Assembly (NCBI GenBank): GCA_024137785.1 | Contig: JAHRHZ010000016.1 | Location: forward strand, 41,559,305-41,623,304 | Reading direction: 5' to 3' | Length of the DNA: 64,000 bases | Origin: Ginglymostoma cirratum | Taxonomy: Eukaryota | Part shown: positions 12,568 to 61,176 of the stretch, one piece after another | How positions within the stretch are numbered: the first letter of the stretch is position 1 | Layout of the letters: each line of letters starts with the position of its first letter | Translations under genes and position numbers: made by a program | Notes under the pieces: generated by a model | The model's database searches: none | What the model saw: only the letters and a program-made list of their open reading frames with translations | Told to the model about the DNA's origin: nothing

Positions 12568-12574
12568 TAGGAAA

Positions 12575-13685: not shown

Positions 13686-13689
13686 GTGG

Positions 13690-16744: not shown

Positions 16745-17170
16745 CTTAACTCACAACAAGCCAGCATTTTGGTTTGGTGACCCTTCTTCAGAACTGATTC
16801 GGTGGGGGGGGGGGGGAAGCGGGTGCGTGAGGGAGGAAGTGGGAGGTGGGAGTAAACAGTAGGTGGAAGTGGAGCCCAACGACAGAGAGAGAGAATAGTA
16901 GTTGAGCAAACAAAGGAATACATATGGTGATGTGGGGAGAAACAAAAACTGCTGATGGGGACCATGAGTGGGTGAAAATAGGTTGGCTCTAGTGAAAGCA
17001 GCTCATGTGATAACAATGCCTGGTGTGTGAGAGTGGGTAAAGGACATGGAAAGTGCTCAAGCCCTAAAGTTATTGAACTCAATATTGAGTTCTGAAGCTG
17101 TAGAGTCCCCAGGTGGAAAATGAGATGCTGTTCTTCCAGCTTGGGTTGCTGATCACTGGAGCACTGCAGT
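16745..17170 (-). mobile_element. Penelope-like 3' end with a degenerate hammerhead motif
   Basis: KLEEQHLIFHLGTLQ..NIEFNNF at 17070-17145; pyrimidine-rich UTR; agttCTGAAGAAGGGTCAC at 16795-16777. Confidence 0.75.
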
Positions 17171-17724
17171 GTGTCCAGAGATTTGGATAGTAAGGTGGGG
17201 GGAAGTAAACGGGCAAGTGTTTTCTAAAATTTTCATCTTTGTTTTCAATCAGTCCATGGTCACACACTGTCCCCAAATCTGTAATCTTTTCCAATCCAAT
17301 AAACCTCCTAGACATCTATGCTCAACTGGATGCATAACAATGACTGCAATGTAACATGACGCTGAAGGTGTGCTCCATTGTTTCATGGAGATGTTAAACC
17401 AAACACTTGTTTGGTGTTCAACTGGACATTAAAGATGCCATGGTTCTATTTGGAGAACATTAGGAAGCACTCCCAATGACTTGATCACACTTCTTTCTTA
17501 AATATTAGATTAATTGAAGATTCACTTCTGAAATCTATAGGATACTGTTGGATCAGAATGTCTGTGTGTTTAACTACAGCATTCCAAAAGTTGTGATGGG
17601 CAATTTCCATTTTCAGGGAACATGGACCAGTAAACCTGGCCCGCAGTGATGTAATTTTACTTCTTGCACTAATGGTTGCAGTCAATGTTGAGGTCTGTGC
17701 AAATGAGATATTTATAAGGGAAAG

Positions 17725-17875
17725 GACTTGCATTCATATTGTGCTTTTCATGACCATCAGATATTTCCAAGTGTTTTGCAGCCAATGGAGTTCTGTTGTA
17801 CAATTGGAAATGTGACTGTCAATTTGAACTAAGTGAGCTCCCATAAACAGCAATGTGATAATCACCCAGATAATG
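17725..17875 (-). mobile_element. Deu-domain SINE 3' fragment
   Basis: gacttgcattcatattgtgcttttcatgacc...gcagccaatg...aaacagcaatgtgataatcacccagataat. Confidence 0.65.
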
Positions 17876-18041
17876 AGTGTACGACAAGGCATACAATTTT
17901 TCTCTTTGTGCAAGCCCATGGCCATGTCTCATATGACCTGTTGTCTCTTTGTGTGATTTTGCGGTTTCATAAAGGGACAGCAAAGATCCACACCCAGTAT
18001 AAAGCACCTTATTCATTTTGATTATTGTGGTTTATCAACAG

Positions 18042-18262
18042 GGGCCAAGCATCCTTGAACTGGTCTGGACCCGACCTACCAAATTCTACAAAAAACAGAT
18101 TAAACATAACCAACTATAGGTGTGATGATGAGCAGAAGTATTTTTGCAGTACCATGACTTTAAGGAAGGCTCATCGCAATGACACTGGAAGATATATTTG
18201 TAATTATGCCACTCCTGCAGACACTGAAAATCTTAAATCCAAGATCTATGTATTTGTCAAAG
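18042..18262 (+). CDS. kdrl: VEGFR exon 3 (Ig1): GQASLNWSGP...FCSTMTLRKAHRNDTGRYIC...KIYVFVK
   Basis: aacag acceptor, ag|gtaagg donor, 221 nt; Ig W and DTGxYxC motifs; lies inside ORF 18025-18327. Confidence 0.95.
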
Positions 18263-19499
18263 GTAAGGAAATCTGTTTAAAGTCTCCTTTTGTGGCCATT
18301 TCTATCTGTATGTGCTGTAAACAATAATCCTCTCACAGAAAAGACCAAGTGTGATACAGTGTGACTTGTTGATTCATTAACTCAAATGACAATAGTTTAA
18401 TTGAGGCAGCATAGCCTGCACATGCTGAATGGTAGTGTGATTAAATAGCTAACTTATTCACAAATCAATATTCCTACGAACAAAAGGTTTGAATTGATGT
18501 GTTTGCTTTCTGGGATGCTGTGGTGTGGAGAATTGATGCACGTTTTGGAACCTGTACTTCAGGAAGAAGTGCAGACTGGAAACTCACTAATCACTTACGG
18601 AGAGGAAGGATACAGCAGTGAATTGATTGCCCCAGACCTTTCTTCTGCATGTTCCATTAGTGTCTTTCCTTCACCAGATAGCAGGCAGTATGGCAAAATG
18701 AACGTGAACAAACAATTCATTGATGTAAAGGGATTTTTTTTAAACAATAAAAATATGTTATGCATGATTCAGTTCATTTTTTACCTGGCTTAAAATTGTT
18801 CTCAGTTTAGTATAACTTGCCTGATTATTCACATCAGTACTCAATGTGCTTGCTTCCCACAAAAATAGATATTCAAAATTTTGGATGGATTTTCTTTTCA
18901 TGAAATATATAGGGATGGATGTTAGGTTTGTACGACGCTGGGAACTCAGGAGTCTGGTAACATCAGTCAGTTGCTCTTTATCTGAGCTATTATATTATCA
19001 CCTGATTCCTGGGTTTTCCAGCCATTTATCATCAATTGAAGTGATGGTCACCTGCATGATATGATTTCAATTCCAGTTCTAATTCAAACATAATTTGAAT
19101 CCAAAGATTAGGAAGAATGAAAACCAAAAGATTAAATGGCACCTCATTTCAGTGATGTCTTCCTATGTGTGCTACTGGAGGTTATAATGACCTGAAAGAA
19201 TATCTTCTTCCTTAAAAATCAATGAGGGAAGCCGGCTGGGAACACTAAAGAAACACATGAGAGGTGGCACATGAAATGTTCCTGCTGGTCACAATGTAGC
19301 AAATGGTTTAATAACCCAAGCGGAGCAGGAAAGGGACAGCGATGATCTATTCACCTACATTCTGATGAGCATTATCTCTTCACTCTACCCTTTCAAGCTT
19401 ACTCTCATACAATGTTGATGATATGGACTTATATTGCAGAAGGTGCATGGTAACTAATGCTCAATGAATGCTAATATATTACCCCCACAGCATCTTATG

Positions 19500-20400
19500 C
19501 AATACCTATTATGCAGAACCTTAACAAATGCTTTCTGAAAATCCAAATGTGCTTGTTATATGCTCAGAGAACTCTAGAAAACTTGTCAAACACAATTTTC
19601 CTTTCATAAACCCATGTTGACTCTCTTTCATTGTGTTAAGCTTTTCTAAAAGTCCTGTGATTTCTTGCGTAATGAAGATCTCCAGCATTTTCTCCAGAAT
19701 TGCCTAACATCTAAGTGGCCTATAGTTTCCTGCTTTCTGCTTCCTTCCAATCTCGTATAGGAGTATCACATCAACAATTTCTCAATCTGCTGGGAATCTA
19801 GTGAGTCACGGAATATTCTGACTAATGTCATCTCTGCTGTCACTTCCTTTAAAACCATTGGATTCAGACCAGTCCTGAAGACTTGTTTGCATTTGCCCCC
19901 TCCTCTTCCACCCTACCCCCAATCTGAGTCCCATTAGTTTATGAAATAAATTCTCCTTCGTGATAAAGGCAATGCTACTTCCCATTAACACTTTACTTAT
20001 CTGATATCTTTAGGATGTCTATAGTGCCTTCCACTGTGAAAATCAATATAAATTATTGATTTAAATTATCTGCCATTTCCTTGCTGCGTATTACAAATTC
20101 CCCCATCACATCCTCCAACATTGCCACATTCACTTTAGCTATTCTTTCCTTTCTGTACCTGGAGAAGTTTTGCTGTTTATTTTTATATATTCCAGCCAAT
20201 TTACTTTTATGATCCTTTTTATCATCATTTTAATCATCCTTTAGCCTATCACTAGTTTACACAGTTTTGTATGCCTTAGTTTTCGATTGGATGCTTTCCT
20301 AAGCACCTTTGTTAATCATGTACGGTTCATCCGTCTCAATTAATCCTTCTTTTTGCTGAGAATAATTTTTGCTGAGCGTTACAAAATCTGTCAGCATTCC
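19500..20400 (-). mobile_element. Old CR1 ORF2 fragment
   Basis: aaatgctttctgaaaatccaaatg is the antisense of LDFQKAF; collinear with 8790-9990. Confidence 0.65.
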
Positions 20401-20414
20401 AGAGGGACATTTCA

Positions 20415-20958
20415 AGAACAAAGAACAAAGAAAATTACAGCACAGGAACAGGCTCTTTGGCCCTCCAAGCCTGCGCCGATCCAGATCCTCTATCTAAACC
20501 TGTTGCCTATTTTCCAAGGATCTGTATCCCTCTGCTCCCTGCCCATTCATGTATCCGTCTAGATACATCTTAAATGACGCCATCGTGCCCGCCTCTACCA
20601 CCTACACTGGCAACGCATTCCAGGCACCCACTACCTTCTGTGTAAAGAACTTTCCACGCATATCTCCATTAAATTTTTCCCCTCTCACCTTGAAATCGTG
20701 ACCCCTAGTAATTGAGTCCCCCTCTCTGGGAAAAAGCTTCTTACTATCCACCCTGTCTATACCTCTCATGATTTTGTAGATCTCAAATCAGGTCCCCCCT
20801 CAACCTTCGTCTTTCTAATGTAAATAATCCTAATCTACTCAACCTCTCTTCCTAGCTAGTGTCCTCCATACCAGGCAACATCCTGATCAACCTCCTCTGC
20901 ACCCTCTCCAAAGCATCCACATCCTTTTTATAATGTGGAGACCAGAACTGTACACAGT
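20415..20958 (-). mobile_element. CR1 LINE 3' end with (TTCTTTG)n tail
   Basis: CVQFWSPHYKKDVDALERVQRRLIRMLPG in ORF 20852-21343; same tail as 13456. Confidence 0.9.
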
Positions 20959-21025
20959 TTCTCCCCATGATACTCTGGTCCACGCTGGCATTCCCCCAAC
21001 ATCTCACGTGTCTTGCAAACATTTT

Positions 21026-21124
21026 ACGTGCGCGTGTGTGTGTGTGCGTGTGTGTGTGTCTGCGTGTGTGCACGTGTGCGTGTGCGTGTGCGTGTGTGCA
21101 CGTGTGCGTGTGTGCGCGCATGCA
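21026..21124. repeat. Compound (TG)n/(CG) alternating purine-pyrimidine microsatellite
   Basis: tacgtgcgcgtgtgtgtgtgtgcgtg...gtgcgcgcatgca, about 100 bp. Confidence 0.95.
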
Positions 21125-21139
21125 TAAGGGCCCAGGGAT

Positions 21140-21730
21140 TGTTTTTTGATTCATTTGTGGGATGTGGGCGTCTCTGGCTGGCCAGCATTTCTTGCCCATC
21201 CCTAGTTGCCCTTGAGAAGGTGGTGGTGAGCTGCCTTCTTGAACCACTGCAGTCCACCAGCTGTAGGTTGACCCACAATGCTTTTGGGAGGGAATTCCAG
21301 GATTTTGATCTGCAACAGTGAAGGAACAGCAATATATTTCCAAGTCAGGATGGTGCGTGACTTGGAGGGGAACTTGGAAGAGGTGTTGTTCCCCTATGTC
21401 TGCTGCCCTTGTCCTTCTAGATGGAAGTGGTCACAGGTTTGGAAGGTGCTGTCTGAGGATCTTTGGTGAATTTCTGCAGAGCATCTTGTAGATAGTACAC
21501 ACTGCTGCTACTGATCTTTGGTGATGGAGGAGTGGATGCTTGTGGATGTAGTGAGAATCAAGCAGGCTGCTTTGTCCTGGATGGTGTCAAGCTCCTTGAG
21601 TGTTGTTGGAGCTGTACTCATCGAGGCAAGTGGGGAGTATTCCATCACACTCTTGACTTGTGCCTTGCAGATGGTGGACAGGCTTTGGGGAGTCAGGCGG
21701 TGAGTTACATGCTGCAATATTCCCAGCTTC
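21140..21730 (-). mobile_element. CR1/L2-group LINE 3' end (same family as 7174-7950)
   Basis: ORF 21508-21759: LGILQHVTHRLTPQSLSTICKAQVKSVMEYSPLA; tail gggcaactagggatgggcaag...cacatcccacaaatgaatcaaaaaa. Confidence 0.88.
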
Positions 21731-22164
21731 TGCACAAAGTGACTGTACAAAGGCCACATGCTTAATGTTACATCTTCATTATTTTTCTTGGATCAACCAG
21801 GTAATCAATATATTATTTCACTAACTAAATAAAACATTGTAATTGGTTCCTTATTACTTACCACGAAAGAAAATTAGTCAAGTACGTTTTAATTGGAAGG
21901 AGGCATAGCCTCATCCAAAAAATAATTTAAACCTTTGTTGTGACCAACCAGGAAGACTTATCCAGGGCAAGCTAGTTCATCCCTTCTCGCCAGATAATAA
22001 GAGGCCTCTTTCCCCAAGTATTTGAAAGTTGGCATCAAGCAGGTTTTCAGCCAGTATCCCATCTGGGTAACTCTCTACTAGGCACAATCATACCTGCCCA
22101 GGTGGACTGCAGTCTAGGAATCTTGCATAGATCTGCATAAAGATCTTCTTTTGGTTGTGATTTC

Positions 22165-22500
22165 ATAAGTAGTGTTATCACTGAACTGTTCATGCAGAGA
22201 CCCAAGTAATGTTCTGGGCATCTGTGTTCAAATCCAGCCATGGCAGACAGTGGAATTTGAATTCAATAAATATCTGGAATTAAGCATCTAATGATGACCA
22301 TGAATCCACTGTCAATTGTTGGGAAAACCCATCTGGTTCACTAATGTCCTTTAGGGAAGGAACATGCCATCCTTCCCTGGTTTGGCCTCCACGTGACTCC
22401 AGACCCACAGCAATGTGGTTGACTTTCTGGGCAATTAAGGATGGGCAATAAATGTTGGCCTAGCTAGTGATACCCTCATACCATGAATGAATTTTTTTCA
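22165..22500 (+). mobile_element. tRNA-headed SINE with a LINE-derived tail
   Basis: gttcaaatcc B box; aaaacccatctggttcactaatgtcctttagggaagga core; gggcaattaaggatgggcaataaatg...atgaatgaat tail. Confidence 0.85.
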
Positions 22501-23059
22501 AAACCTACTGCAGAATGAGTTCAAGTCTTTGAAGTTAACAAATTGTCTTCAGTGATGTACAGATGCTTCTTGCCATATATCAGTGCATCCCTGCACCTAT
22601 GGAAGCCAGGCATAATTGCAAACTTAAACAGTCTTTCTGACTGGTGTTGCCACAGGCAAATTTGGCAAAATTGCCAGCCTGGAAAAGTATAATTCGGTGA
22701 CAAATCTTACACTGACTGCACAATGCTACAGATGTCTCATGATGAACTCTAGATGGATCCAGAGGCAAAAAGAAAGTTTAAAGCTGTGATGACATTGACC
22801 GCCACTTGTGGCCACAAGGTCCTGTTGACAACAGGCTTGGTTCAAGTGGGCTGCAAATAACTCCTCCAACCTGATGTGACAATCCGAATCTCCTCAAACA
22901 CTGGTGCTCCAACATGTCGATGTAAGCTTATCCTCTGCTTGTAGATCCTATGTGCAGGATAAGTCCTCCTATGAAACTGCAAACTGTATTACTGCCCATT
23001 TTGCTTCTCCTGCTGTTACTCATGATTATCTTGTTCCTAACCTCTGAAAGTCGAAACAC

Positions 23060-23135
23060 AAGGCCATAAGATATAGGAGCAGAATTAGGCCATTCGGTCC
23101 ATCGAGTCTGCTCCACCATTCGATCGTGGTTGATA
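23060..23135 (-). mobile_element. Short CR1 3' tail
   Basis: ccataagatataggagcagaattaggccattcggtccatcgagtctgctcc. Confidence 0.7.
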
Positions 23136-24649
23136 AATAATAGATCAGAGCTCCAAGGTGCAGAGCATTTCCAAAGTGTCGATAACATCACCAAAGTGTG
23201 CAAGGTCATCTCTCAGCTGAGTGCATTTCTCTGGTAATCATTCCAGCTGCCTCAATTGCCATAATCTTCTCACTTTGCTTTTGCTGGTGATTTCTTGCAA
23301 ACCTGGGAATCCCAAGAAGCCAAAGTCAGACGAGTATTGTTTAATTGAGTGATTAACATATTGAAATTGACAATCTGCCCCTTCCTAATACAGAAACAGC
23401 CTAACACATTCATAGAAAATGTGAAAGTTGATGAGTTGTAATAGAATTTTCCACTACACTCAATATTTTTTCTGAATTTCATTCTCTATCCACTACTAAA
23501 CCCATGAGCTCATCTGCTTTAAAACTAGTCCATTGCAGCTGACAAAAAGTTTTTATTTCCATTTTTGGCAATCAACATGAATGTAAGGCCCTCATGGTAA
23601 GATATCTCAGGAAAAGGAAGAGACAATAAAAGTTTCATTGGTTTGCCTCAATAAAGTGCCAGAGTGGTTTTCATCCATTTCCACACCAAGCTTCCTGAAT
23701 GAATTTACAAGCTGCCCTGTAATATAGCTAGTTCTGTGTCTTGGACAGATGAATCTGTTAAAACATCCAAAATTAAGTCATTTATTCTTCTTACTCTCTC
23801 TTGCTGATCTAAATTCAAATGGATCCTCTAGATAACTTCATAGTAACACATGCAGGTGTGGGTTATTATAATGTATTGCAAACCAATTCACTAATCTGGA
23901 GTCATTTGAATGCAGCTTTTACAAAAATCCCTCAGAATTTGGCATTCATATGTGGTTGAAATAGGCAAACCAAATAAAAACTGAAGTCTTAATCCATACT
24001 AGATTTCAACATAAAGGATGTGTGATGAGTGTCACACAGTCTAGACTTAAAGCCACTACTTCTCATCACATGACAGTTTTAAATAGAAATACAGAATCAT
24101 ATTCAGCAAAATGCAGCATGCGATACTGAGATGGAGGTATGCTGAGATGAGTCAATGTGAGTACAGATTACTGAAAGGGAAGTGTTTGGTGCCCCTTTGT
24201 ATTCTCTTCTGCTTGGGAAATAGATTCTGAAGGTTTCGGAAATGCTGGTCATTTGCAATTATTTCCTGATTCGCCTTTGTTTTTAAGTTCCGGATAAAAC
24301 TGGTCAGTGACTAAAAGGCTCCAAGAGAAGTAATATTCCACATATCATTTAATTGTGCATTTGCTCACTGGAAAGGAATCTTCATTTATCTTGATTTACT
24401 TTTGTAGAAGGCTTTTAAGAATTAGGAAGGAAATTCAAAAATCACTTTGTAGCAATTGCAACACACTCCCAAACACAAACGGTTTCCAAACATGAAAGAA
24501 CCTTTTTGGGTTGGTTTCACAAACAATTTGCACAGAACTAACCTGTTGATGACATAACCATACAAAACCAAATAATAAAATTGTCAAAATGCAAATTTCA
24601 GAGAACAAAGCCCTCGGCCCTGTTTCTCTACCCTGTTTAACAGCGACAA

Positions 24650-25030
24650 ATTGCATTTATATAATGCCTTCACAGTAATAAAACACTCCAATGTGCTTCA
24701 CAGTCTCACACAATGGTTTTACACAATGACACAGAGGAGATATGAGGATGGATTCAAAAAGAAGGTTTTAAAGAGTGTCTTAAAGAAGGAGATGAATGTA
24801 TAGCGACAAAGAGGTTGGGTAGAAAATTCTAGAGATTTGGGTCTGTGCAGCTGAAAACACAGCCATCAACAAGAGGGCTAATTAAAATTAGGGATGTAAA
24901 GGTGGCCAGAATTGGAGGAACATAGACATTCCAAAGAATTGTTGAGCAGTAGAAGGTTACAGGGATAAGGAGAGGTAAAAGCATGAAGGGAGTTGAATGC
25001 AACTAAAAGAACTTTAAAATTAAGGCATGG
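24650..25030 (-). mobile_element. Old L2-like LINE 3' fragment
   Basis: ttgcatttatataatgcctt tail; ggttttaaagagtgtcttaaagaaggag...aattctagag; similar to 51000-51830. Confidence 0.55.
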
Positions 25031-25071
25031 CCAAACTGATATCTGAGTTATAACTCACTCAGAGATAGCGA

Positions 25072-25242
25072 GAACTGCAGATGCTGGAGCCAGAGATAAC
25101 ACAATGTGGAGCTGGAGGTACACAGCAGGCCAAGCAGCATCAGAGGAGCAGGAAAGTTGACATTTCGGGTCGGAACACTTCTTCAGAATTTTCTGAATCT
25201 ACCTGGCCTGCTGTATTCCTCCAGCTCCATTCTGTGTTGTCT
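25072..25242 (-). mobile_element. Short Penelope terminal insertion with a hammerhead-like motif and an inverted segment
   Basis: actgcagatgctggag...cagcaggccaagcagcatcagaggagcagg, the motif at 25159-25186, then a + strand copy cctggcctgctgtattcctccagctcc. Confidence 0.8.
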
Positions 25243-25921
25243 GTGGTATCTGACTTATACTCTGGAACAAAGACTCAAGCAAGCACATTGTATCTGCAAT
25301 GTAATTCCACCCTACACACCAGGATCACAGCTTTGTTTTTCTGTTGTTTCTAATAGTTCATCCTAGAGTGACTTTGGGCAGTCGCTCCTGTAGTACTATC
25401 TAGTGGTCATAAGTCCACTATGCAAAGCTGCAATGGTTAACTTGAAAATTGCATTCACAGAGTCTATGGGATAACTGGATTAGTAGCTAGCTTCACACTT
25501 TTGCATTCAGTAATCTTCCGCGGAAAGAAAGAAGGTGTACCATGCATCTGATCATTCTATATCTAACTTGGACATGCTTGATGCTGATAAAGATGATCTA
25601 AAAGTGTCAGTGTTCACTTCCATTGTATTGACCAGCAAAGAAAAGCAGAACCTCAATTTGTTTTAATAAATAATTGAATTTCTGGTAGTATTGTTCACTG
25701 TAGGTCAGGTAATAATACTGTTCAATAATTTCAGGATATCAATGCCATGAAATGTGCAATATTCCATTGTTGTTAATGAGTAATAGTGCTTAATTTGGGC
25801 CATTCCTTTTAATTACACGTTATACTTATAGAATCACAGAATTGTTACAGTGCCGAGGGAGGCTATTCAATCTATTGTATCTGCACTGCCTCTCTGAATG
25901 AGCAACTCACTTAGAGCCATT

Positions 25922-26080
25922 TTTATTTCAGAACCCTCTTCCCCTCCCCCATTTCTGATGAAGGGTTTAGGCCCGAAACGTCAAGTTTTCCTGCTCCTGT
26001 GATGCTGCTTGACCTGCTGTGTTCATCCAGCCCCATGCTTGTTATCTCGGATTCTCCAGCATCTGCAGTACCTTTTATCT
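25922..26080 (+). mobile_element. Short Penelope terminal insertion with TSD
   Basis: Flanked by ttagagccatt (25911-21) and ttagtgccatt (26081-91); contains the hammerhead-like motif and tail gattctccagcatctgcagt. Confidence 0.85.
25951..25986 (+). ncRNA. Minimal type I hammerhead ribozyme-like motif
   Basis: attt-CTGATGA-A-GGGT-ttag-GCCC-GAAA-CGTC-aagt: intact core boxes, stem II with one wobble, ACGT palindrome, 4-bp stem I. Confidence 0.7.
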
Positions 26081-28249
26081 TTAGTGCCATTCCCCTGCCT
26101 TCTCTCCATAACATTGATTGTGCCTGCTTTTCAAGTAACAGTCTAATTCCCTCTTGAACGCCTTAAGTGAACCTACCTCCACCATGTTGTCAAGCACATT
26201 CCAAACCCTAACCTCTCACTGCACAAAAAAAACTTATTCTCTTATTACTTTTGCCTCTTTTGCCAATTATTTTAAATTTGTGTCCTCTTGTTTTTGATCC
26301 TTTCACAAGTGAGAACAGTTTCTCCCTACCTAATTTGTCCAGATCCTTCACAATATTAAGTGCCTGTAGCGGTATGCATCTCAATCTTTGTAAAGATGCA
26401 TATGCTGCATTGTAAGTTAATTACTATCAAAGAGAGAAGTCCCAAAACAGGTAGGTGCTTCCAAACATTTGATGGCAGTTCAGCAAAACTAACCTGAAAT
26501 TAATGCCCATCCTGCAGTTTAAAGCATTAGATACTTATCAAACTTGTAATGAATAAAATCTTGCTGACGTACAATAGATGCACTAAGCCTTTCTCTGGAT
26601 GAATATTTGGGATCATTGTCAGCATGGACAGCAATCTAATAACATCAAGGTAGAATTATTTGCCATGCATGGTTCCAATACAAAGTATACTCAGTATCCA
26701 AAGACCTGAGCTTACATTTAAAAACTCCCAAGAGGAATTCAAATGATTTCAATGTGTTCACATTGTGAAACCATTTCATTCTATGCATGACGAGACTACT
26801 TCTTTGATTTCACCCTTGCAGGATTAATGAGTGTTTTGCATCAAGTCTAAAGAAAAAATGTTACGGTTTATGATACATCTGTAGTGACCTTCACCATCTT
26901 TCTTTTAGAATAGTGAGCACCCAAATAACTTAGCACTGTACAGTTCTTGTAGATGTGAGGTGATGAAAAACAGGTTGACAGTTTTAAAAAGAATCAAACA
27001 CATTCCACAGTGGACAGATTTATGTATGAAATACATGTGCTCAGTACAGACCCACAGAATTCCAAACACAGGAACAGCATAAAATAAGTCCAGTATGTCA
27101 TGAATTGTCTGGCAAAAATGGAACGATACAGTTTCATTGGGAATATGATTTTGGTTTCTAAATTTGTTAACTGTGTGTGAAGATGTCTTGGTTGTAGAAA
27201 TAATGGAACTGCTATCATAAGACTAGTATTGGACATTGGGAAAATCCAATGACTTCACCATAACTCCTTAACAAGAAACTTTTCCAACCAGGAATGCATA
27301 ACATAGGCTTGGTGAACTGTCCGACATTAATAGGTTCAGGGCTTATCAGCATTAACACTACACCTTCCATCAGAATGTGTACAAGCTACCAAATTAACTT
27401 TTTCTAGTCAACTATCAAATAAGATGTCAAACAACAGTCACAAACTAACAGTAATTTATCAGCCCTAAATTTATTAGCTCTCACAGTTAGCAATAATTAT
27501 TTTTAAACTTTGAAAATGTAAATAATTAGTAGATATGATTCATTTATGAAAAAAGAGAAACACAGACCAATCATTAACAACTTGCTGATAATAACATTAC
27601 AGTTGAAATTCATGTCAGAGATTAAAATGCATTTGTAAAGTACTTTAGAGTCACATGGCTGAAAATTAACATTGGATAGCTGGTCCTGAATTACATGAGC
27701 GACAACACTTCCAAAATAATTCATTAATTGTAAAATGCATTGAGACATCCAGTGTTGAAAAGAGTTCTATAAATGCAAGTCATTCGTCTTCTTTTAGCCA
27801 ACTGAATAAAGTCTATATGCTTGTGGTTAGCAAATTTCCAGGACTTGTGCAACCTCATTGTTTTGTGATATGGATGAACTAGTTGCTAACTGCTTCTGAT
27901 GTTTCTGGTTTAAACCCGGTGTCTCTTAATCTCAAGGTGGTGACAAAACTTGGTGATACAGTTTTAAATAGATCTTCTCTCTCTAAAATCTTATCTTCTC
28001 CAGCCTTTCGCTCTCACTCTCATTGTCTCTTACTCTTTCAAAAGTGCACTTTTCAACACTATGCTTTCTCGAACAGACTGGACAAGGACTGCCTAAATCT
28101 AGTAAAACCTGCAACAAGAACCAGAAGAATTGCTAGCTGAGACTTCAGTGTTACCAAAGATATGTTGTATAGCTCTAATTTTCGAGGATTCTTCAGTTCG
28201 AGAGATCAGTCTGAGGGCTGCATGTTAAATAAGTTTGACTTTTATAGTA

Positions 28250-30122: not shown

Positions 30123-30216
30123 CACAAACAGTATTGTTTTAATGACCACATAATCTGTTTCCTAGGTAATGATTGAGGATAAGTACTGGCCAAGACACAG
30201 AAGATAGCTCTCCCCG

Positions 30217-50539: not shown

Positions 50540-50699
50540 TCTAATCGGATAACCAATATTTACAAAGCACGTGAAATCACAACTGTGTTTTACAGTATTC
50601 TAACTCTGAAAGACATTCAGCAAAGTGATGAAGGAGACTACATATGCAAAGTATCAAATAAAAATACATTAGAAAACAGGACTAAAGTTATTGTCTATG
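50540..50699 (+). CDS. kdrl: VEGFR exon 7 (Ig3 second half): SNRITNIYKAREITTVFYSILTLKDIQQSDEGDYICKVSNKNTLENRTKVIVY
   Basis: T-rich tract + tcacag acceptor, atg|gtaagc donor, 160 nt; FYSILT...SDxGxYxC motif. Confidence 0.93.
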
Positions 50700-50999
50700 G
50701 TAAGCTTTGTAGAGCTATTAAACACGTTTCATTTACATGACAGAGGTGCAGAAAGTCAGGTACTTGTGTTCCAATTTCTGGGTATACAGTAAGCTAACAA
50801 TACAAACTAAATCTATTTATCAATCTCATTCAGATTTGGGGAATCTGCTGTTATAATGCTTTTCTATATCTTCCAAAGACTCAAGGCAGCTTGTCTTCTT
50901 ACTTTATCCTTTTGTATTATTTTAAATGACTTCATATCAATTTTGATACTTATGACTAGAGGCAGTCGATATAACACTTACAAAACAACAGCATGAAGT

Positions 51000-51830
51000 T
51001 GTATAGCATAGTGTCCACAAGCAACTCCACAGACAGCAATCTGACACCTAACAGCACAAGGAGCTTTAAGGACAGAACACTAAAAGCTTAGAAAAAGTGG
51101 TATGTTTTAAGGCATGTCTTAAAAGAGGAGAAAGAGGTAGAGCGGCAAAGAGGAAAGGAATTCCAGAGATGCAGCTTTGGCAAATGTTAAAATTGGGGAT
51201 CGTATAGAATTGGAGGAGTGCAGGGATTCCAATGACCTGTCGAGTTGGAGAAGCTTACAAAGACAAGGAGGGACAAGGCTATTGAAAAAAATGGCTAGAA
51301 GCTTTGAAGTTTGAAGTTTAGGCTGACTGGGTGCCACAATGAGCAAAGGGTGATCAGGACTGACTGCAAATTAGGACAAAGATGGCAGAGCTTTCAGTCA
51401 GCAAACTTACATTGAATCGACAATGGGACGCTCAGCTAAAAAGTATAGGAATAGCCAAGACCAGAGGTAAGAAAAGCCTTGATAAGGATTTCAACAGCAC
51501 AACAGCCGAGTGGGGGGGTAAAATTGCTCAATGTTATGGAAGTGGAAGTGGGTTGCCTTAATAATGAGCAGTTTTAGTCAGCTCTGAGGGATGGAGTTGA
51601 TGGCTATATCAGAAGTTTATTTCAGGGCCCAAAGTCAATGTCTTTAGTATTCCTTACATTTAGCTAGAGTAAATGCTGCTTATTCTGTGTTCAAACTGAG
51701 ACAAATAATACGATTAATTAGAAACAATGAAGGGGTTGAGAGAGATGGTAATGGGATAGGACTGGGTGTTAGCAGTTTACACATCAAATTGGACATTATG
51801 TTTATGGAGAATGTTGCTAAAGGACGTCAT
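51000..51830 (-). mobile_element. Old L2-like LINE fragment
   Basis: tgttttaaggcatgtcttaaaagaggag...gaattccagag; gactgggtgttagcagtttacacat is a decayed antisense YADDTQ. Confidence 0.6.
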
Positions 51831-53589
51831 TTAGTTCAGTGATAGATTACTAGGGACCCAAGAGGTACCACATGTAGTTTGAATTCAGGGTTTGAATCAG
51901 TGATACTCTGAATATAAAATATAAATACAAATAAATTTGCAAGATCAATGGAACTATCTTTATTATGAAAAATCCTTACCTGGCTTAAAATCAACATAGT
52001 ATTATAGCTAACTGTAGCTTTGTGGACTGGAATATTTTAAGTAAACTTTTTTTGTGTTGGTAGAGTTTCTTTCCAAATTTGATAATCAGTCAACTTTTCA
52101 TCACACCAAGTACGGTTACTATAAGTGATCATAAATTAGCCACTTAGGGGCCTTGATTGGGAAAAGGTTAGACTGTCAGCCTACACCTCGCCTTTTGTCG
52201 TAAAATTGGAGACATGGGGAGGTCAGATTTAAGGCCAGTGGGAAGGCTAACTGAGGAGTAGTACAGCTTCGCACACAAGCACCCACCCATCCCTCCAAAT
52301 CTACCTGCAAACTGTAGATTGGAAAATTCTATGACCTGTAAACAGCACATAAAAGACGTATATACAATAGATAACATAAATTAAAGAAAAAGAAAATTTT
52401 TTGCAAAATAGAATCTGTGGAAAATATAATAAAATATATGTTTATTTACCATTGCTTTATTAGTTGGGTGCCATGTCCACCATATGTCAGATTATCAACT
52501 ACTGTCAGTTTCATCATCATGTTGTAGCAGCTCCAATTTTGGAAATTCTTGGCAAGTCTGGTAGCTACTGTGGATAGAGAAACAAGAAACCCCCTGCAAT
52601 TTTGGCCCCAAATAAAATAACAGAGGCATAGAACTCTCTGAGGAAGAGCCATATTTCACTCAAATTGTTGGGCAGGATTTTCATTCTAGATCAGGATAGT
52701 GAGAGCTCAGAGATCAAACAGCCAGAGCGATCAGTCAGGCTGGAGTAGAGCTATTTAAACTCTCCAGTGGTTATCTAGGGTCTCAACCAAGCCTCACGAT
52801 GTATTGTTGGCTAACAATCCTAATATCCCACAGCCTGTTAAAACACCTGAACTCCTGCTTGATTGACTGCTCTGGTTGTCTGATCCCTGTCAATTTCTCA
52901 ATATTTACTTACGGAAGTGTTACAAGTGCCTAGTGGTTTGAGAAATTGAAACTTTAAAGGGCCTGGATGATGAACACTGACATTAGGATGCAGTGAACTT
53001 TTTTTACATTAAAACATAACGATTTTAATTTTGTGGAAGATTATGAATGATTCCCTTTTTTTCAATTGTTTTATTCAGGAAAATGTCATGATAGATTTCT
53101 TTTTTAGAAATGCAGTGTGCGGTAGATGAATGAGTTTGGCAGTGCCTTGGCTTGGCAAGGGATTTTTCAACAGCCATAAGTTGTTTGGGTATGAACCTTG
53201 GCACGGGGAGCATAAGAAGCCAAGGGAAGGGCTTGAGGGAGTATACCTTGGCATGGGGGAACATGCAGAGAACTTTTTGTCCTTATCTTTCAAAAGGTTG
53301 TCTGATGAAGAATCTACTCCATGACCCTCTGACGTGCCACGAACCATGATCCTTAAAAAATCTGCCCCAACTGCATTGAAAAAAACAGATAAGTAGGCCT
53401 TAACTTTCTGCACAATAGAGTTGGCAAAGTTGGGGTGAGAGGCCCAAACTTGCGATCAAACTACACTCCTAAAAGGCACTCCCAAAAACTGGAAAACACA
53501 AAAAAGGACTCAGGAATCCCAGAATCAGATACCCACCACTATTTTTACAGAAGTCTAGCGTCAACCTGACTCAATGGAAATCTGACTCA

Positions 53590-53695
53590 TTAATTCTGTT
53601 TCTCTTACCACAGGTGCTGCCAGACCTGCCTGAGTTCTGCCAATGCTTCCTGGTTCTTGCTCTGATTTCTAGCATTCGCAGTATTTTGCTTTTAT
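53590..53695 (+). mobile_element. Penelope terminal fragment
   Basis: cacaggtgctgccagacctg...ctgatttctagcattcgcagtattttgctttt. Confidence 0.65.
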
Positions 53696-54055
53696 TTTAA
53701 TGTAAAGATTACTGCTGGTTTGATATAGATACATCATCTTCACTGCCAGTATGTTTATACTTAGGATGAATTTTTTTAAAAATTCTACCCCTCATAATGC
53801 ACGTTGCTGAAAAGACAAAAAGATGACTAATTACTAATTGCAAATTACTATAGAGCAAAATGTAAATCTCGCAAATTTCTGAGGTTTGTCTAGGTGTCCC
53901 ATGTAACATCAGCAGAAACCATAAAATGACAGTATCAATTCAACTTCACTTGTATCCAAGTAAAACAGGTTTTGATTTAAACTGCATTTATTCAGTATGA
54001 TTTCATACCATTTCTCTAGTCTTCTAATAGTTTTATTTTTCTCTTCCAACTGCAG

Positions 54056-54173
54056 ATAAGCCTTTCATTAAAGCAAGAGTAAAAACGAACAAACCTTTGG
54101 ATGTAATGGTTGGAGAAAAGTTTGTGAAACTATCTGCGAAAGTGAATGCTTTCCCAACACCAGAGGTGTCCTG
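54056..54173 (+). CDS. kdrl: VEGFR exon 8 (Ig4 first half): (D)KPFIKARVKTNKPLDVMVGEKFVKLSAKVNAFPTPEVS(W)
   Basis: Long pyrimidine tract + tgcag acceptor, tg|gtaaag donor, 118 nt; KPFI...AFPxPEVxW motif. Confidence 0.94.
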
Positions 54174-54684
54174 GTAAAGTGCATCCATTTGATTCTTCCA
54201 CAAATCCTCCTTTTTAATGAGCTCATTGTTTTAAAAATCTTGTTTTTACTTCACTAACTTTCTCTTATCTTTTCCGAAAATGAAAGTTCAGTTTTCAGTA
54301 CTTTCAGGTCAGGTCAATTGATTGTTGGGTACAAAAATAATTAAAAGATCCAGCAACCATGCAGGAAGGTCAAGTTAGAAGTTCAGCCATGATCTTGTTG
54401 ATTCGCAGAGCAGGTTCAAAAGGCAAATAGCCTACTGAAGATTTTATTTCTTATGTTATAGGAACCCCACAATTATCACAACAGTAGCCTCAGCTTTGTC
54501 TTCAACAAATTTACCCTGAATAGCAATTATGAATTTTACTGGAAAAGTTGCAAAGCCAGCCAAATAGAATGAGACCTGGCAGCTACACCTGATATTTTTC
54601 CCAATGCATGATTGGGATAACCTCTGGCTAAAAATAATTGCTGAGACCATTTCACTGAGAGTTTGCCAGAGGTGACAGAAACAA

Positions 54685-55151
54685 ATACTTGCATGTAAAG
54701 AGCAGCTTTCACGACGTCCAAATGTTCCAAGGAATTTTATTCCTAATTAAACTTTCAAAAACTCAGCAAGCATTCTACCAGTCGTCAATGTTACAATATA
54801 GGAAATGTGGCAGCCAATTTCTGCACAGCAGACTCCCACAAACAACAATGTAATAATGACCAGATAATTGTTTCCTAATTATGTTTATTCAAGGATAAGC
54901 ATTTGCCAGGATATCAGGGAATATCACCCTCCCATCCTATTTTTCTTCATTGTAGTGCAAATATACCCTGTACATTCCACAGTGAGGGCCAACTAAGCCT
55001 TGACATCTCTTCCAAATGATCGCACCTTCCCCAGTGCAGCATGCCTTCAGTACTACACTGCAACATCAACCTAGATTTTTGCCTTCAGTCTCTTGATTGA
55101 GATTTGAATACACAGTTTCTCAATCAGGTGAGAATGCTACCAACTGAGCCA
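54685..55151 (-). mobile_element. Near-complete Deu-domain SINE (SacSINE1-like)
   Basis: Minus-strand head tggctcagttggtagcattctc...; core aggaaatgtggcagccaattt.tgcacagc...aatgaccagataat; tail acttgcatgtaaagagc. Confidence 0.8.
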
Positions 55152-55195
55152 AATAAAACTAAGTTGTCATCCAGATCAGTGAAACCACACCAAAA

Positions 55196-55277
55196 TTAGG
55201 CCCGAAACGTCAAGCTCTCCTGCTCCTATGATGCTGCTTGGCCTGCTGTGTTCATCCAGCTCCACACCTTGTTATCC
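55196..55277 (+). mobile_element. Penelope terminal fragment with the 3' half of a hammerhead motif
   Basis: ttaggcccGAAACGTCaagc...gatgctgcttggcctgctgtgttcatccagctccacacc. Confidence 0.8.
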
Positions 55278-56159
55278 GAAGTTAGGGGAGTTGATTGCTA
55301 AATTGTTCAAGTTGTCTATATATGTATTTTCTTAACCAATATCTTTTGGTCGCCTTACCACTTTTTACCAAATCCAAATATGAGATAGGTTCATGGTGAT
55401 ATCATTAACAATTCCATGTTAATTTTATTGTTAAGATAAACAAATGAACAGCATTGTTTAACTTAGTAACAAGAGCACTTATAAAGACAGGCAGCTGGAA
55501 CATTCAGACTAGTAAGTAGAAGACAGACATATTTAATGGTGCATTTTGTAAATAAACCTACTATCAAGAAAAAGGATTGGCGTCTCTTTTCATACTTTGC
55601 AATCTGCTTTGGGACCCATTTAAAAAGAATCATGACTTCTGATGCTTGCTTTGTTGATAATAAGAATTCATCAGAAAGTTAATGGGCTCATTAACGTCTC
55701 CTGATTCTGCAAAAAATAGATTTTATTTGTCTTTAGAAAGAAGATATGTTAGAGAGCTGACAGTCTGCTCAAAGGATAAATGGTCTATTAATTTTCAAAC
55801 AAGGAGTGCAGTAATTTGACAACTAAGTGAAGGAAATTCTTCCAGACTAACCATCATCCTAGTTATAGATAAGGTGGAACTTTTAAGTACAGTGAAAATT
55901 ACGGCTAAAATGTTGATCATACTTACTAAATATCTGGCAAAATAATAGTCCATCTATTGAATATTAATAACGTTTTTTAAAATACGTCTTTTCCTCTGAA
56001 GTTTTCACCACTTAGCAAACAATCACATCCATCACATGACTTTACTGAGCAGAGAAGATAGTGCCATCTTGTAATAAGCATCCCATCTGAGCCGCTTTGT
56101 GATTGACAAATAGTATAGAGTCATAGAGGTCTTTAAAAAAAGTAACATTGATATTGTCC

Positions 56160-56335
56160 AACTCTCTCATTAGGGAGACACAACTGGTGGTGAGCTTAAC
56201 CTGAGTGTCACCACATTTCAGGTAAGGGACAAGGTTGAGAAGGCAGGACCGTAAGCATAATGCTAGTACAGGATTTGAACCCAGACCATAGGGATCACTC
56301 TGCATCACAAATCAGCCAACTGAGCTAACGGATAC
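56160..56335 (-). mobile_element. tRNA-derived SINE of another family
   Basis: Minus strand gttagctcagttggc (A box) ... gggttcaaatcc (B box) ... ccttctcaaccttgtccc...tcaggttaagctcaccaccagt. Confidence 0.7.
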
Positions 56336-56339
56336 CCAG

Positions 56340-56685
56340 GGCTGTGCAGAACAGAAAAACACCTATTGACCCATCGAATCGGTGCAAGTCAAAACAACCA
56401 CCTAACTACTCCAATCCCATTTTCCAGCTCTTGGCCCCTAACCTTGCGTGTCCTGGCATTGCAAGTGTAGCTCCTAAATACTTCTTAAATATTATGTGGG
56501 TTTCTGCCTCTACCAGCCTTACTTCACATCCCCTCTACAACTCCTGCCCCTTACCTTAAACATATAGCCATTGATCCCTCCTCTCCACCAAGGGGAAAAG
56601 TGCCTTCCTGTTTACCTATGACCCTCATTACTTTATACATCTCAATCCTGTCCCCACTCAGTCCCCTCTGATCAAAGGAAAACAA
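56340..56685 (-). mobile_element. Old CR1 3' end
   Basis: ccaatcccattttccagctcttggccc...ccaaggggaaaagtgccttcctgtttacctat...tttatacatctcaat. Confidence 0.7.
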
Positions 56686-58637
56686 GTGTTCCTTAACTAG
56701 TTCATTTTGCCAGTATTGTCATTATTATCACTCCCATCTACAGTGAACCATTACTATGTTGTTCTCATCTAGTGTGCTAAAGCTAAGAACTATTAAAACT
56801 CTTTCAATTAAAATGCAATTGTAATCAGAAACACTCGATCAACAGTCAAGTAGCACTGCTACTGGAATTACCACGATACCTCATGGACTTTGTCAATTAT
56901 TGTTACAATGAAAGCACCGGATGATTTTTTTTGTTCCCTTTTTACCATTCCTTTCCTTGAGATGTTGTCTCACATTTTGTACTGATATTCAGAACCCTCT
57001 GTCATTTCTTTGCATGTGGAAATGGACAGTAATTGTCAGCAAGTTGTTTAACCATGGAAAGTTGTATAGCTGACCTCAATGTCTGGGTCCATCACTGAAC
57101 ATCCACCCACCAGCAGATTCCATTGATAATCATTGGATGCCAATCAAAATGGGAATCTTGACCTTCTTTTCTGCTCTCTTTGACAGTATGGGCAGTATGT
57201 GTCAAAGCTTTTTTCTGTCCAATCTGGCAAAGGATTTAAGGTCCAAGCTGTTTAAATCAGTTTTCCACTTCATTCGCAATGTCAATTTAAATTCTGCCTT
57301 TGGCACATCCCACATCAAGAAATTCTTCTTGTCCTATCATTAGAAAGGCTCAGACAGCTAGTGTGCAGCATGTTGAGATTCAGGATTAAACTTCAGAAGC
57401 TGCAACAGTGGGGAAGCATCAATCAGTGTGGTCAGTTACCTTCGAAATGTTTCCGGACCAATCTCTAAGACACTGACATTATCCATTAAGTCAGCCCTTT
57501 CCAGGCTTTGGTGTCTCAGAGTCAATTTGTTTGTTTCATGTTGCTTTGCCATCCATCAGACAACTAAAATACCTTCTCAGGAAATGACCAACTCCATGAA
57601 GACAACCAAACTCCTGATTATGGAATTGTGGCTGTGGTTTTGCCAATAGTTAGGTGCAGTTTCCACTCTTGCACGTGCACTTGCGAAAGTTGCAATCCTA
57701 TGTCAGGATTGCAGTCTTTTTAGGACACTGAGGCATTGGCACTGCTTTATACAAGATGACCATGAAAATACAAACTGGACATGTACTCCAGCATAACTTC
57801 CCTACCTCTATGTAGTGCACACTTCCAAGTAAAAGGTTATTGTTGCTGCTAGAAACAGTGATGCCCACAATCATCCTAAATCAACAAGACCAGCACTTTA
57901 GCTAAAGCTTACATAAGGAAATTGCTATCTGAAGTCAGTTTCCTGACTACAAGTAGGCTCCAGAGATTAGGCCTAACAGCTTTGAAAATGAAAAATAAAA
58001 CAGTATCAGTTAATAAAAAGAAAGGAGTTGTACTTAAGAAGTTCCAGTAGATTATTAAAGCATTATTCAGTATTTGCAGTTGTTATAACTCACTGTGCAC
58101 AGTCATTCTGCCATTTATTTATTAAAGCAAGACTGATTCCAAGACATTTCAGTTACTATTGTATTTATTTTCCAGTCAGTGAATTGTAGGAAAAACAGTC
58201 AAGCAGCTGTAATAAATATTTATTAAAGTTGTGTGTCAGCTTAGTTCAATTGTTCCTTGTCAAACAGATAAATAAAGGAATGATAGAAATAAAGCTGAAT
58301 CACAATGTCAATCCGTCGCTCAGTAGTCTGATTTTAAATTACTTCTAAATCACATTTAAAACATTTTCGAAGCTATTTCTTTGTAAAATTGATTAAAATT
58401 AGTTTCCTCATACATTTTAAAAGATCATTAAACAATCATTTAAATAAAATCAGAATGTATCCATTTATGCCTATGTATGATCCAGCTTAACCTTTGCAGC
58501 CTCCTTGAAGACATGCAAACATGCAAACTTACGTAAAAGTAATAGTCCAGAACCAGTGGTCTTAGACTGAGGATTCCAGGACCGGGGTAACAGTTTGAGA
58601 ATTCGGGGTAGACCATTTAGCATATAACAGTGCTCCT

Positions 58638-58797
58638 TCACAAGCTTTCGGAACGCTGCTCCTTCATCATTTCACCTTGACGAAGTGGCTATGCTCCGAA
58701 AGCTTGTGATTTCAAATAAACCTGTTGGACTATAACCTGGTGTTATATGTCTTCTGAATTTGTCCACCCAAGTCCAACTCTAGTACCTCCACATCAT
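58638..58797 (+). mobile_element. Penelope terminal insertion of a second family with inverted hammerhead-like motifs
   Basis: tcacaagctttcggaacgctgctccttcatca (minus-strand copy) followed by tgacgaagtggctatgctccgaaagcttgtga and aataaacctgttggactataacctggtgt. Confidence 0.75.
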
Positions 58798-58839
58798 GGC
58801 ACCCCCATCACCAGACAAATAAAAAAGAAACTCATTCAA

Positions 58840-58882
58840 CAAGGAAAGATGACGTTTCAGGTCAGGACCCTTCTCCAGAAAT
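58840..58882 (-). mobile_element. Penelope hammerhead-bearing fragment
   Basis: Minus strand ttCTGGAGA-A-GGGTC-ct-GACCT-GAAACGTC-atctttcc. Confidence 0.6.
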
Positions 58883-59009
58883 CCAAGAGTAATAATGTGG
58901 CATCTTGTACATTGGTTATCGTCACTTTTGGTTACACAATGAGTTACTTTGAAATGCAATAGCTGCTATGAGTAAACAAATGTAGCACTCATGTGAGTCA
59001 TCTGTCTTG

Positions 59010-59530
59010 TGTCATAGAGTCACAGAGCATGGAAACAGACGCTTCGGTCCAAACAGTCCATGCTGACCAAAATCCCAAACTAAACAAGTCCCACCTGTCG
59101 GCGCTTGGCCCATATCCTTCCAAACATTTTCTACCTATCCAAATGTCTTTTAAATATTGTTACTGTACCCGCATCCACCACTTCCTCTGTAAGTCTACTC
59201 CAAACGCAAACCACTCTCAGTATATTAAAAAAAAATGCCCCTCACATCTTTTTAAATCTTTCTCCTCTCACCTTAGGTTAAGGGGTAGCAATTTAAAACA
59301 GAGTTGTGAAGAATTATTCCTCTAAATCAATAGAATTCATTATGCCAGAGTGCAGTAGATGCCAGGTCACTGAATAAATTTAAGGAGGTGAATGACAGAT
59401 TTTAATTTGTTATGGTTTAAAGAGTTATATAGAGCAGGCAGGAAAGTGGAATTGAGACTGAGATGGGATAAGCCATGATTGTAATATACGATAGAGCAGG
59501 CTCCAGGTGCTGAATTCCCAACTCCAGGTC
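59010..59530. mobile_element. Two CR1 3' ends joined head to head (minus 59010-59273, plus 59275-59530)
   Basis: gtcatagagtcacagag tail on the minus copy; aaggggtagcaatttaaaacagag...atagagcaggctc on the plus copy. Confidence 0.7.
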
Positions 59531-59963
59531 TTAGTCGTTGTGTTTTTATGCTGTTCATAAGAGAACATCACAAATATCAATATGATGAATAATCAATTCA
59601 CTTGTTTCTGGTGATGAAAAAGGTCAGCTAGAAGTTTGAGAGGCTCTGCTTTTCTTCAAATCATGATGTTGGATCATTAATATCTGATGATCATAAAAAA
59701 GTATATTTTTGAAACATCTTATCTGAAGGATGGCACTGACTTGTAATGCAATAGTCCTTCTGTATTGCTCTGGATTGTGGGCAGAAATAATAAACTCAGA
59801 GCCTGGGTCATGAATTTCTGATCCAGAACGACAAACACTACCAAATGGTTGGATTAAGTTGGTTAAAACGATAGTGAAAATATGAAAAGTTGCAATTGGG
59901 ATAAAATACACAAGGAATGTTAATCTTTATTTAGTCCACCTAATCTGTAGCTTTGCATAACAG

Positions 59964-60139
59964 GTACAAAAATGGAAAACTTATTACACAGAATCAGACT
60001 TGCTATGTCCGAAACCGATATTCATTAAAAATAATGCGTGTGTCAAAAGATGATGAGGGGAATTTCACTATTTCACTGAACAATAAGCTGCATAACCTAC
60101 AGAAGAACCTCACCTTCACATTAAGAGTGCTTAGAAATG
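59964..60139 (+). CDS. kdrl: VEGFR exon 9 (Ig4 second half): (W)YKNGKLITQNQTCYVRNRYSLKIMRVSKDDEGNFTISLNNKLHNLQKNLTFTLRVLRN
   Basis: aacag acceptor, atg|gtaagt donor, 176 nt; WYKNG and DxGNFT...KNLT motifs. Confidence 0.93.
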
Positions 60140-61044
60140 GTAAGTTAATTACATTTCATTTTGTCTATCGGCAGATCATAGGATGTTGCGGGTGTTACGA
60201 ATCTGAAATAAAGATAGAAAATCCTTGAAATGCAAATGGTAATTGTGTCCTGAAAGGAATAAAGACAAGCAAACATCACAAGTATTTGGCCTCCATCAGA
60301 ACTCTACATCTAACCATACTCAGAATGTTAGCCTGCATTAGTTCCTTTTCCTTTTGAGGCTCAAATGAATCTGCTGTGCATTTCCAACAGTTCTGTTTTG
60401 ATTTCAGCGTACATTATGGTCTGGGTCAGCTGGAAAAGCTCAGGGGGAGTATGCATAATACAAATACAAAAAAAAAAATCACCCAAACTATTTCAATTTC
60501 TTCAGAAGTAGCAAGCATTCCTTTGGGAGTCAGATTTTTTTACCAAAAAAATTCAGAGCATGCACTGCAGTTCTTTTTGTTGTACAGCAGAGTTCCCTTG
60601 TAGGCTATAAATGATTTATTATTTGCACATTGTGTTATGTTTAGTTTTTCTGTGCTTTCTTGTCAAAGCAGTTTTCAAGAACAACAAGCTAAGCCAGACA
60701 CAGTTTCAAAAAAAGAAGTTCAACAGCGTTACAGGAAAGGAATGCTGGTAATAATTATAAGAAGTACTTCCACCAGCGAAATTTCTTTTGAAGTCAGTGT
60801 AATAGAAAGGTCCATTACTACAAGAGCAATTGTCTGTCAAGGGAATTTTAAAAAAACCGTGAGGTGATAGCTTGCGAAAAGAACCATTTTTTTCTTTTTG
60901 TAGGGCCATCATAGGAGTCTGGACAGACAGATCTGATTGCTCCCAGGTTTAATGCCCTTGCACTGAAACCATTGGCAAGATTTCACTTTCGGCATTTGTG
61001 TACCTAATTTCCTAACCCTAACCCAACTAATGCAGACATTAAAA

Positions 61045-61176
61045 ACTGAAATAACTGTGGGTGCTATAAATCAGGAACAAAAACGGAAGTTGCTGGAAAA
61101 GCTCAGCAGGTCTGGCAGCATCTGTGAAGAAAAAATCAGAGATAATGTTTCAGGTCTGGTGAACCTTCTTCAGATT
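61045..61176 (-). mobile_element. Penelope terminal fragment with a hammerhead-like motif
   Basis: gttgctggaaaagctcagcaggtctggcagcatctgtgaag is the reverse complement of 28322-28362; minus strand CTGAAGA-A-GGTTC-acca-GACCT-GAAACATT. Confidence 0.8.

Follow-up and report, generated by a model that had tools for sequence, protein, structure and literature searches.

Hammerhead motifs in the introns of kdrl

The window analysed here is a stretch of 64,000 nucleotides (nt) from the shark Ginglymostoma cirratum (GCA_024137785.1, contig JAHRHZ010000016.1, positions 41,559,305 to 41,623,304 of the forward strand). It holds kdrl, a kdr-like vascular endothelial growth factor (VEGF) receptor gene, together with hammerhead ribozyme motifs that belong to Penelope-like elements (PLEs). 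The relatives found were shark kdr-like proteins in 6/6 cases, at 66–75% identity, and the exon at ~18040-18261 matches the N-terminal Ig domain of VEGF receptors. A sequence-only reading had proposed about ten hammerhead motifs scattered through the introns of a VEGF receptor gene. All eleven sites that it listed were confirmed, in position and in strand, and every one lies between mapped exons of kdrl, five sense and six antisense to the gene. Their presence in these introns is accounted for by the ubiquity of PLE copies in the genome. The gene and the eleven sites are as follows, where A to D denote the element families described below and pLTR the pseudo-long terminal repeat of a PLE.

6102..60144, + strand: kdrl, VEGF receptor kdr-like; eight mapped exons, gene continuing past the window; exon matches at ~6102-6215, 18040-18261, 37121-37249, 47186-47371, 48277-48435, 50540-50700, 54055-54174 and 59965-60144
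16763..17178, − strand: decayed 3′ end of a family B-like PLE, with C-terminal coding fragment, 3′ untranslated region (UTR) and hammerhead with G12 changed
25059..25188, − strand: family A-related stub with tail, stems damaged, then an inverted piece at 25192-25246 (+)
25922..26080, + strand: tailed family A pLTR stub in sense orientation to kdrl, with an intact core at 25955-25982 (E 1.6e-14) and a cut predicted after 25982
28272..28373, + strand: family B pLTR stub, core 28277-28306 intact except for one stem I mismatch
29992..30126, + strand: family A-related stub whose boxes are intact and whose stems I and II are broken
38002..39545, − strand: decayed, 5′-truncated family D PLE, with the C-terminal half of the reverse transcriptase (RT), Cys linker, GIY-YIG domain (39521-38298), 3′ UTR and hammerhead 38083-38056 with A13 changed
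55196..55276, + strand: family A stub, truncated within loop II so that just the hammerhead's 3′ half is left
58638..58669, − strand: inverted 5′ arm of the family C insertion at 58671..58800, lacking C3 and stem I's 5′ strand
58671..58800, + strand: family C pLTR stub with an AGCU palindrome and damage to its first box and stem II
58851..58878, − strand: short family A-related core, A6 changed to G
61040..61174, − strand: tailed family B stub whose boxes are intact, with damage to stem II and the palindrome

The exact pattern CTGANGAAG-N8-16-GAAA-SS-TH was matched three times in the window, against 0.01 expected from 100 shuffles. A covariance model, one of the checks proposed with the sequence-only reading, was built on 14 genomic copies from outside the window and recovered 8/11 sites, with E-values from 1.6e-14 to 0.0031; the next match had an E-value of 0.17. 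An alignment with family C in it was out of register by one column; family C was therefore excluded from the model, which is why its two sites were missed. The half site at 55196 also gave no match. All three were found by blastn to match family A or C genomic loci. A single inverted insertion accounts for the sites at 58638-69 and 58677, one in each arm, so that the eleven sites represent ten events.

Preservation was scored position by position. The CUGANGA and GAAA boxes, U16.1 and H17 were kept in 5/10 full-length sites, while only one, at 25955, combined both boxes with stem II, the ACGU palindrome and a stem I of 4 bp. The core at 28277 was intact apart from its single stem I mismatch, and a box, stem or palindrome was broken in the other eight. 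Boxes were kept and stems lost at 29995, 25186 and 61173, and a box was damaged at 38083, 58878, 16791, 58670 and 58676; as the scoring was gapless, damage is overstated at 58676, where inspection by eye shows a single-base insertion in the first box. The window copies are dispersed or inverted and form no tandem stub array; arrays elsewhere in the genome fall outside this search.

Structure and covariation of the motifs

The claim that stems differ between families yet remain paired held for the genomic copies and not for the window. Eight stem pairs were compared in 14 copies, from families A, B and D plus one further family, and 92% of pairs were paired, with nine double-change cells distributed over four of the eight pairs. 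Values as high as those observed for pairing and for double changes were reached by 1 and 2 of 500 shuffles, respectively, and slid controls were at most 54.5% paired. In contrast, most of the window copies have broken stems.

Stem III is loop-less and formed by a palindrome, ACGU in families A, B and D and AGCU in family C. The 10.1–11.1 pair is G-C in 11/14 copies and G-U in 2/14. An extra A after CUGANGA, seen in all the listed copies by the sequence-only reading, was present in 36/36 family A and 45/48 family B copies picked by a downstream anchor. The extra A was set aside as a novelty, as the metazoan PLE consensus already includes an unpaired base between 9 and 10.1, together with a G10.1-C11.1 pair and a palindromic 15.2–16.2 (PMC4209133). 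Young family A copies showed 3 differences in 360 non-CpG core cells.

We consider it highly probable (about 0.9) that the motifs are minimal type I hammerheads, predicted to cleave, in the pLTRs of at least four PLE families, and that most of the copies within the kdrl introns are broken, likely inert stubs.

Element families and copy number

The proposal of several distinct hammerhead-bearing Penelope families, leaving footprints of 100–200 bp, was borne out: at least four families were found, with short copies that end ~95 or 130 nt after the first base of the core. In each of families A, B, C and D, some copies are joined to PLE coding sequence, as an RT or GIY-YIG frame. In the 4.36-Gb genome, exact-pattern searches, for which reversed controls gave 0 matches, found at least 58,323 cores of family A, at least 6,547 of family B, at least 98 of family C and at least 11 of family D; these counts are lower bounds fixed by the search patterns. 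The 30-mers chosen downstream of the core occurred 100,051 times for family A and 27,013 times for family B.

One family A locus (L079:1951-5097) contains an unbroken frame of 1049 amino acids with an RVT_1 domain (E 6.7e-7) and a GIY-YIG domain (E 7.3e-5), both above the Pfam cut-off. This suggests that family A was recently active, and the frame should be of use in biochemical work. A CX2-5CxxC linker lies at residue 898 of this frame, between the RT and the endonuclease; such a linker marks the Neptune and Nematis clades (PMC8557442). In L084, the family A motif precedes the frame by ~130 nt; in L001 and L017, it follows the frame at ~275 nt. The pLTR was likewise seen on the 5′ side in L084 and L079 and on the 3′ side in L001 and L017, which are different copies. 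Occurrence of the motif on both sides of the frame places the hammerhead in the pLTR.

Coding sequence was found upstream of the motif in 2/15 family B loci, from the endonuclease region, and in 4/8 family D loci. The window itself contains one such family D element (38002..39545), where the hammerhead at 38083 is preceded by a decayed 1.2-kb region of RT and GIY-YIG sequence, with 59–61% amino acid identity to the family A open reading frame (ORF) and 77% nucleotide identity over 1316 bases to locus L225. For family C, 5/30 loci continue into an RT frame that is 25–38% identical to that of family A. This frame was seen in a third sample, anchored at the 3′ end, the first two samples having yielded no adjacent ORF. 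A peptide near one family C locus was rejected as a family C protein, being the start of the family A protein.

Some family A stubs led by a hammerhead join inside or beside family A coding sequence, at ATTT or TTT before the core (L020, L068, L069, L074, L076, L082). Either template jumps or self-insertion into targets of ATT type, which has been reported for the anole PLE, may account for these junctions. A long open frame at L004 (− strand, 295-1641), in which ankyrin-like repeats were recognised by eye, continues into a family A stub; the arrangement is probably that of an exon with an insertion in the intron after it.

Insertion boundaries

Boundaries were examined in 70 copies each of families A and B, taken by anchors downstream of the cut site from the 100,051 and 27,013 occurrences. 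All were from contig C1, a few entries were two arms of one insertion, and 14 (A) and 2 (B) copies with masked 5′ flanks were dropped. The 5′ ends fell between −10 and +3 from C3 in 47/68 family B and 16/56 family A copies, and a further 23/56 family A copies extended upstream into the element. Ends within 3 nt of the cut were found in 4/68 family B and 2/56 family A copies. Only 5/68 family B copies reached more than 20 nt upstream, while family A lengths formed a continuum into the coding region. The 3′ ends were bimodal, at ~+88 to +101 and +125 to +138, in 62/69 (A) and 57/70 (B) copies. An inverted piece lay upstream in 17/56 family A and 26/68 family B copies.

As these copies were sampled regardless of the ribozyme and mostly start at the 5′ edge of the hammerhead, the data suggest that most stubs were copied from uncut RNA. 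The template's 5′ end would likely lie just before the ribozyme, as judged from DNA boundaries alone. The pattern is consistent with work on the anole PLE, which reports two internal RT starts and an uncut main template (PMC11167929).

A mechanism of the following kind would produce such copies. The element protein would nick AT-rich DNA, and reverse transcription would start at either of two internal sites, ~95 and 130 nt downstream of the core, which would account for an optional tail of ~35 nt. The RT would proceed back to the 5′ end of the RNA, likely a few bases before CUGANGA, so that in most stubs the hammerhead would be complete and uncut. Cleavage in the active element is predicted to require a dimer, formed through the ACGU or AGCU palindrome, and probably help from protein. 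Some RNAs, a small minority, may have been copied after being cut.

Copies starting at the predicted cut

Signs of cleavage were sought in family A by counting matches that end at single positions around the cut, with 30 loci per position classified by script; a few errors were seen by eye. Copies starting at +28, the first base after the cut, were estimated at ~1,200 (841–1,485) of 89,729. The estimates were ~160 (92–242) at +22, where the pattern requires an intact CpG and draws on a smaller pool, 330 (197–473) at +27, 545 (287–842) at +30 and 660 (374–970) at +31; that at +29, 760 (215–1,749), has an interval too wide for use. The step at the cut thus amounts to ~3.6 times the +27 estimate and ~2 times those at +30/+31. 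Because an AA dinucleotide directly follows the cut, the +28 class is inflated by matches to AT-rich targets that arise by chance or microhomology. A chance part estimated by hand (~1.2-fold) leaves the step in place, and biased joining could remove it. The excess is therefore a weak hint of cleavage in vivo. For family B, no excess was visible at the sample size available (4/68).

Reads of polyadenylated RNA on a young family A copy covered both orientations, with no pile-up of read beginnings or ends (49,643 of 12.9 million records), though a fragmented library may hide such ends. About 0.4% of the polyA RNA records (run X10) fell on a 541-base PLE piece (L097:1100-1640), in both orientations; PLE ends are probably common in the transcriptome as passengers.

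Taken together, the more than 100,000 young pLTR copies may be a record of PLE RNA ends, in which the main template is uncut and starts at the first strand of stem I, and ~1% derive from RNA cut in the germ line. We put this forward tentatively, as a possibility to which we give somewhat less than even odds. If true, the record of pLTR ends would be in vivo evidence of cleavage by minimal hammerheads, which the cited PLE papers lack.

Decay of the copies and the host gene

In family B, the catalytic G12, which lies in a CpG, was altered in 13/48 copies, compared with 12/48 for the neighbouring stem CpG and 24/96 for the palindrome CpG. Loss of G12 at the CpG rate indicates decay without protection, and older copies look like unselected relics. 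The best-kept window copy, at 25955, is 90–94% identical to young family A copies, indicating that its intactness reflects recent insertion.

We saw no sign that the PLE motifs matter for VEGF receptor biology. Almost no RNA reads fell on the unique intron sequence at 24800-30400, too few to speak to kdrl pre-mRNA. It is true that the two best-kept copies, 25955 and 28277, are both sense to kdrl and lie 2.3 kb apart in the same intron, as might be expected if sense copies had been co-opted to cut or modulate the pre-mRNA. We regard such co-option as very improbable, however, given that the intactness of 25955 is explained by youth, that five sense and six antisense sites show no strand bias, and that catalytic positions are lost at the CpG rate in the sampled copies. 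The stem I strands of 25955 and 28277, moreover, cross-pair over at most 1–2 bp, so a heterodimer is poorly supported.

Alternative explanations

The uniform 5′ and 3′ ends of the short units, and the fact that so few family B copies reach far upstream, might also be explained if these units formed a self-standing, non-autonomous family, resembling short interspersed elements or retrozymes, which spread from its own short or circular RNAs by means of PLE enzymes; a 2026 preprint traces animal retrozymes to PLE pLTRs (10.64898/2026.07.22.740005). However, the stub sequence is that of the pLTR on long elements, family A lengths run continuously into the coding region, inverted upstream pieces occur at the frequencies given above, as in PLE insertions, and the window shows no tandem stub array. 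This origin for the stubs seems unlikely. Equally doubtful, in our view, is that active elements keep the motif for a role other than cleavage, as a promoter or start-site element or as a protein-binding structure. Such a role would fit the apparent origin of most copies from uncut RNA, the absence of piled-up read ends on the young copy, and the report that ribozyme mutants of the anole PLE still insert in vitro (PMC11167929). It would not account for the retention of the catalytic boxes, the N-U-H triplet and both stems across divergent families, nor for the small excess of copies that start at the cut site, and the anole ribozyme does cut with the help of protein (PMC11167929).

Several observations weigh against our preferred interpretation, that of minimal hammerheads in PLE pLTRs with mostly broken copies in kdrl, or against parts of it. 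A comparison with Rfam (version 15) found no hammerhead match, either in the window at E ≤ 1 or in two young copies at E ≤ 10. The set used for covariation was small, its members were related, and some were picked by patterns in which the stems were already paired; the covariation thus counts as support and not as a significance test. When the 25955 monomer was folded, stem II formed and stem I did not (z −0.23), and the lowest-energy homodimer was a long duplex rather than a hammerhead dimer. The folds fail to favour the active shape, which is consistent with weak activity. Stalling of the RT just before the ribozyme would leave the same boundaries as an RNA 5′ end at that place. Non-CpG core positions of family B were less variable than the flanks (18/479 versus 130/1492); copy selection, which required the first base of the core, and subfamily variation in the flanks can explain this difference, although they were not separated from selection. 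Finally, the linker of the family A frame is that given for the Neptune clade, but it is shared with Nematis, and a clade assignment would depend on this one motif.

Other features of the window

Three further pLTR stubs without a recognisable core, outside the eleven sites of the sequence-only reading, were found in the window (n = 3; ~6598-6669 (−), 12576-12634 (−) and 53586-53695 (+)).

6598..6669, − strand: family B-like stub, starting ~2 nt before the cut site
12576..13091, − strand: decayed PLE coding fragments, then a pLTR stub without recognisable core
53586..53695, + strand: family B-like stub, starting ~2 nt before the cut site

Core-less family B stubs, comprising the two in the window (6598-6669 and 53586-53695) and those at L131, L133 and L141, start with TT or GTT, 2–3 nt before the predicted cut. 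These starts could reflect TT-rich targets.

Pfam gave no match on the decayed PLE fragments of the window, for which tblastn with genomic copies was required. It did match DDE_Tnp_4 (E 4e-6) at 13915-14268 (+), a DNA transposon remnant. A GT/GC microsatellite at 21020-21139 gave rise to spurious Rfam matches, and two Rfam matches in the window, mir-297 and sno_ZL1, were rejected because both lie on GT-rich microsatellite. Other dispersed repeats, at 75–89% identity, occur at 7205-8071 (+), 21139-21732 (−), 22168-22492, 35241-35588, 41043-41377 and 42864-43076. From their translated text, we presume these to resemble fragments of long interspersed nuclear elements (LINEs).

Comparison with known systems

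The motifs in the kdrl introns are a further instance of the PLE minimal hammerheads described in 2014, whose cleavage in metazoans was weak and dimer-dependent (Cervera and de la Pena 2014, PMC4209133). The literature searches made turned up no account of PLE hammerheads in sharks, although supplements of the cited papers may list cartilaginous-fish motifs. The value of these motifs as an addition to the catalogue is small. Their use lies in the material, namely a very young and abundant family with an unbroken 1049-amino-acid frame, together with insertion boundaries in the tens of thousands. The role of PLE hammerheads is still called unclear (PMC8557442), and the copy number and boundary pattern make both the start of PLE RNA and the copying of cut RNA testable.

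As in the metazoan minimal hammerheads (PMC4209133), the shark motifs are type I, with a stem I of 4–5 bp, a loop-less stem III, a palindrome, an unpaired base and the G10.1-C11.1 pair, and they occur in multiple families per genome, mostly as solo copies, with nearby pairs on opposite strands. Stem II is 4–5 bp, unlike the 7–8 bp of Schistosoma (PMC4209133). Exact cores number at least 65,000 in the shark, compared with ~4,000 in the coelacanth and ~9,000 in Xenopus tropicalis (PMC4209133).

The coding elements resemble the Neptune/Nematis-type endonuclease-positive (EN+) PLEs (Craig et al. 2021, PMC8557442) in their single ORF, RT, CX2-5CxxC linker and C-terminal GIY-YIG domain, and in 5′ truncation, inverted 5′ copies, a 30–40 bp tail and a pLTR hammerhead. 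Compared with what is described there, the shark holds four related families, of which C is only 25–38% identical to A. Animal non-LTR retrozymes, reported from one cartilaginous fish, are likewise short, non-coding, PLE-derived and hammerhead-bearing (10.64898/2026.07.22.740005). They form tandem arrays and are enriched in intergenic regions, however, whereas the shark stubs are dispersed, single or inverted, and intronic.

In boundary behaviour, a parallel can be drawn with the Anolis element Poseidon PAc (Frangieh et al. 2024, PMC11167929), in which two internal RT starts also give rise to the tail, the main template is uncut, and RNA-seq reads show no ends at the cut site. PAc is a Poseidon-clade element with an ORF that starts within the hammerhead, whereas the shark frame begins ~100–130 nt downstream. 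Unlike PAc, the shark copies also show a small excess of starts at the cut site.

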